Shown here: piece by piece, positions 2,139-4,688 of the stretch | Numbering within the stretch: position 1 is the stretch's first letter | How the letters are laid out: each line of letters begins with the position of its first letter | NCBI GenBank assembly: GCA_013166835.1 | Contig: JABLTI010000070.1 | Span: 1-14,713, forward strand | Direction: 5' to 3' | Length of the DNA stretch: 14,713 bases | From: Promethearchaeati archaeon | Lineage (GTDB): Archaea; Asgardarchaeota; Heimdallarchaeia; JABLTI01 | Notes under the pieces: generated by a model | What the model was told of the DNA's origin: nothing | The model's input: the letters and a program-made list of their open reading frames with translations, nothing else | Databases searched by the model: none | Translations under genes and position numbers: made by a program

Positions 2139-2275
2139 ATTCCTCACTACGCCCGAGGAATCAGAAGACCACGGGCGTGGGTTTCCCGAGGGTGGAAGCG
2201 TTCAGCGGTTCTCCTTGGGTTCTGCTTCTCTCTTTTGCTTCTAATCATTAATTAGAAGCGTTGTTTTGTTCTTTA
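2139..2275 (+). ncRNA. Candidate structured RNA or ssDNA origin: H-type pseudoknot, long hairpin and terminator-like hairpin
   Basis: Stems 2139-2145/2155-2161, 2147-2154/2173-2180, 2185-2192/2212-2219 and 2237-2245/2251-2259. The non-Watson-Crick pairs in these stems are G-U on the + strand. Confidence 0.45.
2237..2274 (+). terminator. Hairpin GCTTCTAAT-catta-ATTAGAAGC followed by a T-rich run
   Basis: Perfect 9-bp stem, then GTTGTTTTGTTCTTT on the + strand. Confidence 0.4.
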
Positions 2276-2285
2276 TGCGTTGTTC

Positions 2286-2564
2286 CTATTTGATTCTTCT
2301 ATATGTTCCAGATTCCACCTTCGCTAATAATCCATCTGCAACCAATTTATCTAAACTGTATTCTATTATAATCCATTCACTTGGTTTATACATAATTTTT
2401 GAATCTGTGGTATCGTTTTCGACTTTTCTCTTAAGCATAACTTTCCACTCAAACTCATCATTTACATTAATTTTTGTTTGAATGATCTCTTCCAATTCTT
2501 TTGCACGTATTTCTATTTTCTCAGCACTCGGTGAGACAATCGTTTCATGATTTTTTTCTTTCAT
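2286..2564 (-). CDS. Small winged-helix-like DNA-binding protein (92 aa)
   Basis: C-terminal IIEYSLDKLVADGLLAKVESGTYRR fits the wHTH recognition helix plus wing pattern (L..L...G.l..v..G.Y). GTGA ribosome-binding site and a TATA box upstream. Confidence 0.65.
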   Translation of the reverse strand: MKEKNHETIVSPSAEKIEIRAKELEEIIQTKINVNDEFEWKVMLKRKVENDTTDSKIMYKPSEWIIIEYSLDKLVADGLLAKVESGTYRRIK

Positions 2565-2597
2565 TTTTAATCACTATTTTAACAAAAAAAATCGGAG

Positions 2598-2614
2598 TTA
2601 TATAAACTTTCACG
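2598..2614. promoter_or_regulatory. Archaeal TATA box, palindromic TTATATAA (2598-2605), between the divergent wHTH and histone genes
   Basis: On the - strand it reads CGTGAAAG-TTTATATAA (BRE-like plus TATA), about 34 nt before the wHTH start. The core is usable in both directions. Confidence 0.55.
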
Positions 2615-2664
2615 ACCAAAGTTGCCTTTTTATTTCTCTTTCCTTACTTCTTTTTGTGATTGTT

Positions 2665-2895
2665 TTGTCCTCTAAGAAAACTCTAATCCCTACTGGTACT
2701 GTTAAGCGAATTATGAAGGAAACCACTGGTATGATGATCAGTGATGCGTTCGCTGAAGACGTTGCTCAGAAAGCCACGGAATTCATCGTTACCGTTGCTT
2801 TGAAAACGAAGGTTTATGCTGACCATCACAAGAAACGAATTCTTAAGAAGAGCATGTACGACGTCATCGAATTAGCCGAGAGAATGAACGGGTAA
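2665..2895 (+). CDS. Divergent archaeal-type histone-fold protein
   Basis: LIPTGTVKRIMKETTGMMISD...ADHHKKRILK...DVIELA aligns by eye with HMfB-type LPIAPIGRIIKDAGAERVSD...ARHAGRKTIKAEDIELA. TTG at 2665 preceded by GTGAT is preferred over GTG at 2656. Confidence 0.8.
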   Translation: MSSKKTLIPTGTVKRIMKETTGMMISDAFAEDVAQKATEFIVTVALKTKVYADHHKKRILKKSMYDVIELAERMNG

Positions 2896-2897
2896 CT

Positions 2898-3794
2898 TCA
2901 CACCCGACTGGCATGCTCATAATACCCTAATTTTTCTTTAAAGTTTTTAATCCCATGGTAACTTATGATCTCGCTTACCTCTAACTCTAATATCGGTTTA
3001 TTCTCATCTACCTCTGCTTTCAGATTGTATTTCTGAATTCCTCTCCTCGCTTTGTCGAGGTCTCGTTTGAACGGAACAATAACAACGAAGCGTCCTTTCC
3101 CTTTCAGATGATTTTCCGCTGACAATAATCTGGTAATAAACACGTCCTCGTCGTATCCCTCAGCTCCAGTATGCACTTCGAACCAGATATACTCTTTCTT
3201 ATTATTAACTAATACGCGATGACAATTATCAGCGATGTAGTCTCCTTTCCCGTGCCAATGCGGAATCTTGCGACGAGAAGAATCAGTAGTCGTTATCTCA
3301 TCCTCAGTTAATCCTTGTTGGAGCTCTCGGAAACACCAATTACTAAAAACATCGTGATGAGGAAACGGTCTTCGAAACTTGCTCGGAACTAAGCGGTAAG
3401 GAGAACACGTTGGATACCCGAACCAATGCTCGAAGCGAACACCAAGCTTTGGCATAGGATAAGCTGAAACCAAACCTAAACGAAAGATACGAATCGAACC
3501 TCGAAGCGAACCAGTCGGGGAATAATACTCCCTATCAGCGTAGCACTCACCACTGTACAAGTGATTAAACAAACTATCATTCGAAAGATTACCGAGGAAA
3601 TCACCAAAGCACTCGTGAAGAAGAAAAGAGAAGTCATCCTTACTGAAAAGAGGACGTTGAAGAATCATATCAAGAAATTGTAGCTCAGAACTGGAAAGTA
3701 AATTAAAGGGAAGAGAACGAGCTGTCGGAGAACTAACACTACTCCAACCAGTCGGAAGTTTTGGCACAGAAGCGGAAGGGGAACGCTGAAACAC
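2898..3794 (-). CDS. Replication-relaxation (Replic_Relax)-like PD-(D/E)xK nuclease
   Basis: Ordered motifs HHDVFSN, YIAD and WFEVHTGAE resemble the family's H-D/xx, PD and ExDxGTE motifs, followed by the beta-strand FVVIVP. GTG at 3794 after GGTG is preferred over TTG at 3851. Assigned by eye, no HMM. Confidence 0.6.
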   Translation of the reverse strand: MFQRSPSASVPKLPTGWSSVSSPTARSLPFNLLSSSELQFLDMILQRPLFSKDDFSFLLHECFGDFLGNLSNDSLFNHLYSGECYADREYYSPTGSLRGSIRIFRLGLVSAYPMPKLGVRFEHWFGYPTCSPYRLVPSKFRRPFPHHDVFSNWCFRELQQGLTEDEITTTDSSRRKIPHWHGKGDYIADNCHRVLVNNKKEYIWFEVHTGAEGYDEDVFITRLLSAENHLKGKGRFVVIVPFKRDLDKARRGIQKYNLKAEVDENKPILELEVSEIISYHGIKNFKEKLGYYEHASRV

Positions 3795-3804
3795 GACAAG
3801 TAAC

Positions 3805-4013
3805 ACCAATAAAGAGTCTGAAAAAAGAACTAAAAAGACCACGAAAAACAATCAGTCAGAAAGTCAAAAAGTCACTTAAAAAAAGAACGAAAAAAAGCAA
3901 AAAAGAGACTTGGAAACAAGAAGAAAAAAAGAAGGAATCAAGAGAAAAAACAGTCGAAAAGTCCCTAAGAAAAAAGCAAACAAAAGAAAGAATCCCTTAA
4001 GAAACACGAAAAG
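3805..4013. repeat. A-tract-rich low-complexity block with recurring (C)AGTC/AAAGTC motifs
   Basis: Hand count of 37 A in 60 nt at 3841-3900. CAGTCAGAAAGTCAAAAAGTC (3853-3873) and CAGTCGAAAAGTC (3951-3963). Confidence 0.6.
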
Positions 4014-4688
4014 AGCCATGGACCCATGGTGAACTTGTTAATTGATGATCTTCCAGAATATGTTGAAATTGTTAGAGGGAATCCAAGACCAACAAGTATG
4101 GTCAATGGTGTTGAAGGGTGCGATGCAGCAATTTTCTTAGGATATCATGCAAAATTTGGAACAGCTAGATCAACTTTTGATCATACTTACAGTGGAGGAA
4201 GTATTCATAATTTGGAAATTAATGGTATTCCAGTTAGTGAGTTCTTATTAAACGGTTATACTGCTGGAGACTATAATGTTCCCGTCATAATGGTTGCAGG
4301 AGATGCTCAGCTAATAGAGGACGATATTAAACAATATGCCCCTTGGATTGAAACAGTAGCATTGAAATATTCTCTTAGCAGACTTGCTGCAAGGAGTAAA
4401 AGCATGATTACAATAGAAAAGGAGCTTAGAAAAGCAGTTCAAGTTGCGGCTAAGAAATTCAAGGATAAGAAAATGAAACCACTAATTGCAGAAAAAGAAG
4501 TTAAAGTGGGCATCACTTTTCGAACTAGTTTAATGGCAGATACCGCAGAATTACTCCCAATAGTTAAACGAATAGATGGGCTAAAAATAGAGTACACAGC
4601 TAAAGACATGATTGATGCCTATAATATTTTTCAATTATTAGTAGCTGCAGCAAGCGGAACTAATGCAATGATGCAATGGTTACAATAA
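4014..4688 (+). pseudogene. dppA: 5'-truncated M55 family D-aminopeptidase (DppA-like)
   Basis: Frame reads S-H-G-P-MVNL from 4014 and contains GYHA, HTY, SE and GD motifs. The N-terminal ~55 aa with the DxEG metal ligands and the Asp of DSHG are absent, replaced by the A-rich block. Confidence 0.8.

Follow-up and report, generated by a model that had tools for sequence, protein, structure and literature searches.

A probable family of small structured RNA genes beside putative selfish endonuclease cassettes in Heimdall-group archaea

Free-standing homing endonuclease genes are found beside conserved genes, as are the seg and mob genes of phage T4. Other nucleases are associated with guide RNAs: the HEARO, or omega, RNA of IscB and the right-end RNA of TnpB. 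In type I toxin-antitoxin pairs such as txpA/RatA, gene and RNA overlap at their 3' ends. The Heimdall group of Asgard archaea comprises the closest known relatives of eukaryotes. In the case of HeimM2 of Heimdallarchaeum, a homologue of homing endonucleases sits as an insert between the genes for 16S rRNA and a tRNA (PMC8813620). Here we analyze an RNA and an endonuclease gene that face each other on contig JABLTI010000070.1 of a Promethearchaeati archaeon (assembly GCA_013166835.1), the whole 14,713-nucleotide (nt) stretch of which we call the window. A preliminary description, made from the letters of the window, had taken positions 2139-2275 for an H-type pseudoknot followed by two hairpins. 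We find that positions 2112-2251 of the + strand, with a trailer to about 2285, very probably represent one copy of a small structured RNA gene, non-coding and belonging to a family not described before, which we call type A. Its parts are as follows.

2112-2251, + strand: type A RNA, matched by covariance model R1 at 142 bits
2155-2160, + strand: GAGGAA, nearly invariant, with partners UUC.UCUC at 2226-2232 (pairing P1) or the 5' tract at 2140-2145 (pairing S1)
2164-2172 and 2177-2185, + strand: arms of hairpin P2, GAAG.CCAC and GUGG.UUUC (consensus GUGG.YUUC), 97.7% of alignment cells paired in 11 copies
2186-2192 and 2212-2218, + strand: arms of hairpin P3, CCGAGGG and UCCUUGG, 95.7% of cells paired; this is the second hairpin of the preliminary description
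2236-2285, + strand: 3' trailer, made of a terminator-like hairpin (2236-2260), a T-rich tail and then GCGTTGTTCC, kept in a subset of the copies

We built R1 from eight type A copies and searched 83 genomes of the class with it. Type A was present in five, all from one Heimdallarchaeota genus (5 of its 11 genomes, including the window's own), and absent from the 72 class genomes outside that genus. There are at least 10 full-length copies, eight in the five genomes and at least two on metagenome contigs (L052 and L131), besides two truncated ones. The full-length copies score 125-148 bits with R1, except L131 at 106 bits. All 10 have in common the stretch from about TGAGAG (2122) to TTTGCTT (about 2241), and in a subset the similarity continues through the trailer, to about 2285. 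G000, the genome to which the window belongs (3.56 Mb in 260 contigs, the window being contig C181), holds exactly three copies according to nhmmer; the other two lie on contig C139 and are 84-89% identical to the window copy. Further scans were scored with the same model. Of the 118 stretches listed when metagenome contigs were scanned with 17-mers, R1 confirmed two. A pattern scan of genome contigs yielded 3 true loci among the 80 scored; 38 short loci were left unscored, and one of these, L252, is the known copy of G003:C143. None of six candidate stretches on viral contigs was true. Positions 2050-2400 of the window were found in DNA sequencing runs of marine and other sediment metagenomes; RNA runs were not among them.

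Rfam 15 gave no match in the whole window at the gathering threshold, and in a permissive scan of 1850-2650 the best hit over the element was a ylbH leader, whose threshold of 50 bits it missed with a score of 13.6. ARAGORN reported no tRNA or tmRNA gene in the window, with the proviso that intron-bearing or split genes could escape it. Inspection by eye only revealed no consistent order of C/D or H/ACA boxes. Among the papers listed on Asgard and Heimdall non-coding RNA, none appeared, by its title or abstract, to deal with type A. The family is therefore undescribed as far as Rfam 15 and that literature, searched to this depth, extend.

Single copies offered some observations of their own. 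One truncated copy, L008 (G009:C165, 2096-2154, - strand), stops at ...CAGAAGAC, inside a 9-mer that also marks a junction of the cassette described below; the other, L012 (G003:C20, 1490-1560, + strand), stops just past GUGGGCUU. In the window, an open reading frame (ORF) of 63 amino acids with a CxxC motif (1783-1974, + strand) precedes the RNA by 140 nt; its first ~30 residues, like the DNA of 1748-1833, are also conserved ahead of the RNA in G009:C165. At L272 (G003:C143) a complete tRNA-Leu(CAG) gene (1277-1325, + strand) precedes type A by 10 nt on the same strand, and beyond the nuclease gene there is an inverted partial 5' half of tRNA-Leu (2597-2684, - strand) with a TATA-like box recognized by eye. 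This arrangement could reflect a split or intron-containing tRNA, or the trace of a rearrangement.

The element is a G+C-rich island (2139-2275) in an AT-rich window of about 26-44% G+C per 500 nt. Its folding energy agrees with the suggestion of an unannotated structured element. As + strand RNA, 2130-2285 reached -56.2 kcal/mol, compared with -40.3 +/- 3.9 for dinucleotide shuffles (z -4.09, 0 of 200 shuffles as good); the - strand gave z -3.17, with 2 shuffles as good. The consensus fold of the family has an energy of -18.8 on the given strand versus -12.9 on the reverse complement. The non-canonical pairs of the main stems are G-U on the + strand, as the preliminary description had said. 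Hence, the + strand is the better supported, by its invariant G-U pairs and by the consensus energies.

Pairings P1, P2 and P3 were proposed by RNAalifold. Across the copies this consensus pairs 96.3% of the cells, versus 46-64% with slid partners, in an alignment that was itself fitted to the model. P1 alone pairs 93.8% of its cells, and one of its pairs is GC in 5 copies, GU in 3 and AU in 2. P2 is weak by itself in the window copy (-4.0 kcal/mol); insertions and deletions are confined to its loop (2173-2176), which is 3-9 nt long and variable in sequence and which forms part of the 3' strand of S2, the second pseudoknot stem. P3 contains two invariant G-U pairs and a nearly invariant apical part, AGCGUUCAGCGG; since it offers no compensatory change, it is compatible with the copies, not proven by them. 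The conserved pairings thus appear to be P2, P3 and that of GAGGAA with a pyrimidine tract, not an H-type pseudoknot. In the trailer, one terminator-like site was found where 0.4 were expected.

Some segments have more than one conserved partner. GUGGG can pair with a 5' YCAC or with the CCAC of P2, and CCUUGG has two CCGAGG partners, as the preliminary description had noticed; CCCGAGG does occur twice, at 2152 and 2185. In local minimum-free-energy folds, 4 of 10 copies form an S2-like hairpin, which has -19.1 kcal/mol in the window copy, and 6 of 10 form P2. A fold switch in type A is possible by this measure. Single-stranded segments of 18-20 nt are invariant across the copies. The invariant single-stranded GGAAUCAGAAGA and AGCGUUCAGCGG suggest binding of a protein or pairing with a target. 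When the genome was searched for complements of the invariant loops, the best one reached 14 nt (C61:4634), close to the chance expectation. A terminal helix of 5-8 base pairs between 5' CUCAAAG and 3' GCUUUGAAUC, seen by eye in several copies, shifts in register and is near chance in the AT-rich flanks; we do not claim it.

How does the pseudoknot fare against these copies? All of its pairings exist in the window. S1 (ATTCCTC 2139-2145 with GAGGAAT 2155-2161) makes seven Watson-Crick pairs, and S2 (CTACGCCC 2147-2154 with GGGCGTGG 2173-2180) makes seven and a U-G. The second hairpin, CCCGAGGG (2185-2192) with TCCTTGGG (2212-2219), has six Watson-Crick and two G-U pairs, and the hairpin with a T-run is the terminator-like one at 2236-2260, followed by TTGTTTTGTT. 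In this copy S1 and S2 interleave in H-type topology, with loops of 1, 0 and 11 nt. A 1-nt loop 1 spanning an 8-base-pair S2 would be sterically tight. Nor does the nested fold of the window element require the knot: its minimum-free-energy structure forms S2 as a plain extended hairpin and omits S1. In an alignment of 11 copies, pairing extends to 70% of cells for S1 and 53% for S2, and 189 of 500 shuffled-partner sets reach the observed value. An unbroken S1 of at least six pairs occurs in 3 of the 10 full-length copies. The window copy is the only one with an S2 of eight pairs, and two others have an S2 of six. Both stems together, at six pairs or more each, are possible in 1 of 10, namely the window, which sets type A apart from H-type RNA pseudoknots. 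Bases 2173-2176 of the S2 3' strand correspond in the relatives to a segment of 3-9 nt, variable in length and sequence and resembling a hairpin loop. Judged from the aligned copies, the pseudoknot is an accident of a single copy; this correction is our main departure from the preliminary description.

The suspected link to the nuclease gene is physical. Homologues of the ORF at 2898-3842 (- strand) lie convergent to the RNA in 5 of the 10 type A loci:

window (G000:C181): RNA-nuclease gap of 650 nt, convergent
G003:C61: gap of 649 nt, convergent
G003:C143: gap of 60 nt, convergent
G005:C84: gap of 379 nt, convergent
L052 (metagenome): gap of 328 nt, convergent

In other nuclease loci a different G+C-rich element, type B, occupies the same place. 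Counting both, 9 of 13 assessable nuclease loci face an RNA, five of type A and four of type B (G003:C89, G021:C42, G004:C105 and G006:C9, by model R2), all convergent and with gaps from 60 to about 1800 nt. No type A or B was found within about 1.4 kb of the nuclease gene at G001:C6, G001:C11, G003:C20 or the broken G001:C39; two more nuclease loci, at contig ends, fall outside the 13. Conversely, both copies on G000:C139 are intact and have no nuclease gene. At G005:C84 the RNA retains 86% nucleotide identity while the nuclease retains 36% amino-acid identity. Whether a nuclease faces type A or type B does not correspond to nuclease relatedness. About 1 kb 3' of the nuclease stop in L269 (G001:C6) we observed a hairpin-rich stretch of ~250 nt with up to 63% G+C, which neither R1 nor R2 matches.

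Type B is found at 16 places in 9 of the 83 class genomes (G000:C246:4654-4746, - strand, and 15 loci, L290-L305). Changes on both sides affect 8 of its 21 predicted pairs (AU in 8 and GC in 5 sequences; GC in 8 and AU in 6; CG in 9 and UA in 6). One pair is U-G in 14 of 15 sequences, and the covariation passes through G-U intermediates. By this pattern of substitutions type B is clearly a structured RNA, and by consensus energy its fold, too, suits the strand that converges on the nuclease. Tandem G-A/A-G borders the inner hairpin, and CUCAAWA/UWUUGAG forms the closing helix. Rfam returned no hit for four type B loci at E up to 1. In one subtype, B1, 7 of 7 loci (that of G000:C246 included) place the RNA about 25 nt past the stop of a ~540-amino-acid LAGLIDADG_3+HTH_3 gene, convergent to it. 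R1 did not detect type B apart from a single hit of 17.9 bits (E 0.066), and R2 did not detect type A. The two types have flank motifs in common, CTCAAAG on the 5' side and CTTCTC..GAATCA..CATTAAT..GCGTT on the 3' side; the type A trailer motifs thereby recur 3' of type B. The window's genome contains three type A copies and one type B copy in its 3.56 Mb. Within the genus, type A is present in 5, type B in 7 and either in 8 of 11 genomes, which are 64-92% complete.

Other genes accompany some type B copies. TnpB genes (OrfB_IS605 / Cas12f1-like TNB) lie 0.4-3 kb from three of them in differing orientations (G000:C246 1527-1718, - strand; L297 2-1090, + strand; L294 3-1024, - strand). Two other copies are near a RAMP (CRISPR) gene, and five have a small MazE/AbrB-like ORF directly upstream.

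The nuclease family is sparse and unnamed. We found 23 homologues of ~300 amino acids, none with a function name and two entered as 'hypothetical protein' of Heimdallarchaeota; among 1.84 billion proteins the family has 28 cluster representatives. Neither the nuclease nor the neighboring 92-amino-acid ORF had a significant match in Pfam, NCBIfam, PADLOC or the sequences of the PDB. The protein atlas returned unnamed clusters; one has Replic_Relax on 17% of its members, which we take as a lead only. An AlphaFold model of the nuclease (predicted local distance difference test [pLDDT] 87.5) has two domains. Residues ~130-310 align with PD-(D/E)xK enzymes at VIA-align Z of 8.0-5.0, in a search where best Z of 7-8 are common for unmatched models; the matches included Cdn1, XisH, Can2, Bax1, TnsA and type II restriction enzymes. 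A Foldseek search found none at E <=0.001. Given the consistent theme of the matches, the model points to a PD-(D/E)xK-type fold in the C-terminal part. D205, E222 and H224 are invariant (ADNC ... W.E.HTG), their placement on strands being judged by eye. The N-terminal domain, modeled alone (pLDDT 86.4), reached Z of at most 4.5 to winged-helix proteins, which weakly suggests a winged-helix-like domain of DNA-binding type. Genes of the family are present in 8 of the 83 class genomes, with up to five matches per genome, some carrying internal stop codons, and on none of the viral contigs. Their multi-copy, patchy and partly broken state is the pattern of a selfish gene.

In the window the nuclease gene belongs to a larger unit, whose features are:

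2153-3848: cassette of ~1.7 kb, 81% identical to G003:C61, with unrelated flanks
2286-2564, - strand: 92-amino-acid ORF with no family match, its stop codon abutting the RNA trailer
2656-2895, + strand: histone-fold gene of 79 amino acids (PF00808, E 3.9e-07), with a homologue in G003:C61
2898-3842, - strand: endonuclease gene, 314 amino acids in the protein collection, reading towards the RNA
3826-3843, + strand: degenerate direct repeat at the right junction (family D8), 14 of 18 positions identical to RNA positions 2156-2173, with the 9-mer AAGACCACG in common

The cassette thus comprises the 3' two-thirds of the RNA, the 92-amino-acid ORF (whose only homologue, at 70% identity, is in the G003:C61 cassette), the histone-fold gene and the nuclease gene. 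The true start of the nuclease may be near 3794, because its relatives begin at the position of residue ~17. Comparison with the cassette-less G003:C35, with common sequence from about 3835, places the right junction at about 3835-3843. G003:C61 and G003:C143 also retain the repeat motif ahead of their nuclease genes; being one of 16 short repeat families in the region, the 18-nt repeat is not significant alone. The same 1.7 kb in unrelated flanks, in G000:C181 and G003:C61, suggests that the cassette is mobile. Profile scans of the cassette revealed no Rep/HUH, integrase or transposase gene. As to an integron attC or similar cassette recombination site, which would go with cassette arrays beside an integrase, 10 scanned ORFs of the window included no recombinase, and the three type A copies of G000 sit on two contigs. 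At G009:C165 the neighboring genes are those of G003:C61 and an intact type A RNA is present, with no cassette. One of the neighboring genes, X, is inverted between these two loci, and no synteny exists to the left of the window cassette. An orphan copy upstream of uS19 was uninformative as an empty site, synteny with its relatives starting ~100 nt past the RNA.

To the right of the cassette, a Peptidase_M55 (D-aminopeptidase) gene at 4026-4688 covers profile positions 63-263 of 264. Homology to its full-length relatives (open frames of 282-285 amino acids) starts at 4014, preceded by an A-rich tract of ~170 nt with a lysine-rich ORF of 79 amino acids (3761-4000). The gene is truncated alike in G003:C35, where the nuclease cassette is absent.

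We tentatively favor the view that type A is a resident small RNA gene with a function of its own, and that selfish endonuclease cassettes land in its 3' flank. We prefer it because the RNA persists intact without the nuclease and is far more conserved, and because RNA types swap among close nuclease relatives, one type being common to an unrelated enzyme family. On this model, the RNA would work independently of the nuclease in the cell, and its 3' flank would be a preferred settling site of homing-type cassettes. These would recognize DNA at or beside the RNA gene and spread by co-conversion of the 3' part of the RNA; the onset of cassette homology within the RNA, at 2153, would follow from this. 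Nuclease expression may also be damped by the RNA, whose transcription converges on the gene. As expected of free-standing homing genes, presence varies at a syntenic locus (G009:C165 versus G003:C61), and the genes are patchy, multi-copy and decaying.

Several points weigh against the resident-gene model. No base-for-base alignment of an intact empty site with a filled one was obtained. That RNA type does not track nuclease relatedness sits uneasily with a homing target defined by its sequence, unless that target is part of the common trailer; as far as models R1 and R2 can tell, types A and B are unrelated, and their flank motifs are their sole likeness. Presence in only part of a genus is odd for a housekeeping gene. 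No transcript was seen, so that the promoter, ends and expression of type A are all inferred. Covariation in type A is nearly nil because the copies are too alike: one pair is changed on both sides, and 97 of 500 shuffles reach the covariation score. The type A structure is accordingly no better than compatible with the aligned copies, not proven. Finally, the third catalytic position of the nuclease is His, not Lys, so nuclease activity is not assured.

Could the RNA instead be a functional partner of the endonuclease, as the preliminary description also proposed? It might be a cis-encoded convergent antisense or antitoxin-like brake, or a bound cofactor or guide, the nuclease-less copies being leftovers or trans-acting. 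The order is tail-to-tail in 9 of 13 assessable nuclease loci and in 7 of 7 LAGLIDADG loci, and the RNA moves together with the cassette. In G003:C143, G003:C89 and G021:C42, ~60 nt separate the RNA from the stop codon, so the transcripts could overlap at their 3' ends. However, two other genes separate RNA and nuclease in the window and in G003:C61, close nuclease relatives face model-unrelated RNA cores, and an unrelated enzyme family also faces type B. Conservation is far stronger in the RNA than in the protein, the RNA remains intact where the protein is absent, no variable guide-like segment adjoins the constant scaffold, and the N-terminal domain of the nuclease resembles, weakly, winged helices that bind DNA. 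We consider a partnership possible, though unlikely. Taken further, it would give Asgard archaea a new class of selfish endonucleases dependent on RNA, with types A and B as their RNA subunits or antidotes: winged-helix PD-(D/E)xK and LAGLIDADG-HTH proteins would each need, or be restrained by, a convergent RNA, in a module unrelated to CRISPR, TnpB/IscB and Argonaute. This extension is speculative, and we regard it as very doubtful.

That the element acts as DNA seems to us improbable. In that case it would serve the nuclease or a recombinase as a site of recombination or attachment, as the end of a transposon, or as an origin of the single-strand or nick type. Such a site would account for cassette homology that starts at 2153, inside the element, for the 18-nt degenerate direct repeat at both cassette ends, for the partial copy in G009:C165 that ends at the same ...CAGAAGAC, and for the copy abutting a tRNA-Leu gene. 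Yet the invariant G-U pairs of one strand (two in type A P3, and the U-G of 14 of 15 type B sequences) would turn into A-C mismatches on the opposite one, the consensus energies favor one strand, and type B covaries via G-U intermediates. The cassette lacks the Rep/HUH, integrase and transposase genes named above, the TnpB genes of G000 are on other contigs than type A, and 15 other short repeat families of the region equal or exceed the repeat in strength. The replication-control or primer RNA and the single-strand or nick origin that had been suggested find no support: no Rep/HUH or replication gene is nearby, the nuclease appears to have a restriction-endonuclease-like fold, and nothing related turned up on viral contigs. 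A 3'-end element between convergent genes, that is, a structured terminator or mRNA stabilizer, REP/BIME-like and spread by duplication, is in our view very improbable. L131, L003 and type B2 (behind MazE-like ORFs) do lie just downstream of a same-strand gene and face the next one, and T-rich tails follow the core. But a terminator has no need of invariant single-stranded segments of 18-20 nt, there are merely three type A copies and one type B copy in 3.56 Mb, the hairpin and T-run of 2236-2260 are not kept in most copies, and one copy comes directly after a tRNA gene.

Few non-coding RNAs are catalogued for Heimdall-group Asgard archaea, and these results contribute two structured families that had gone unannotated. 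Standing beside two unrelated endonuclease families, the RNAs either mark hotspots of selfish nucleases, and so offer a handle on gene flow, or work jointly with the nucleases. The nuclease family itself (~300 amino acids, 28 cluster representatives worldwide) is uncharacterized and could be a site-specific enzyme.

Which of the known systems does the locus resemble? Aloposons are unrelated elements with giant proteins, and we rejected them. The omega RNA of TnpB/IscB was likewise rejected for type A: the TNB domain (PF07282) occurs in G000 on C137 and C246 only, not on C181 or C139. With the guide RNAs of IscB and TnpB, type A shares a conserved structured RNA of ~100-200 nt beside a mobile nuclease gene, at the edge of the element. 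It differs in being convergent to the nuclease rather than co-oriented with it, in facing a predicted PD-(D/E)xK fold rather than RuvC/HNH, and in having no guide-like variable end; moreover, one nuclease family here goes with two model-unrelated RNA cores. The likeness to RNA antitoxins and antisense brakes is a structured RNA on the strand opposite a selfish nuclease gene, within 60 nt at three loci. In contrast to these, the RNA adjoins the 3' rather than the 5' end of the gene, often with other genes between, the 'toxin' would be a 300-amino-acid enzyme, and intact RNA copies stand alone.

Homing genes differ from our loci in other ways. The neighbor here is a new, non-universal small RNA, unlike the rRNA and tRNA genes on either side of the HeimM2 insert (PMC8813620). 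The cassette carries extra genes (the histone fold and the 92-amino-acid ORF), has no known cleavage site, and RNA type does not follow nuclease relatedness. Still, as at HeimM2, endonuclease genes adjoin a conserved RNA gene at the loci described here, where they belong to classical homing families (LAGLIDADG and, by prediction, PD-(D/E)xK). As with homing genes in general, our nuclease genes are multi-copy, patchy and sometimes broken, and their presence varies at a syntenic locus.

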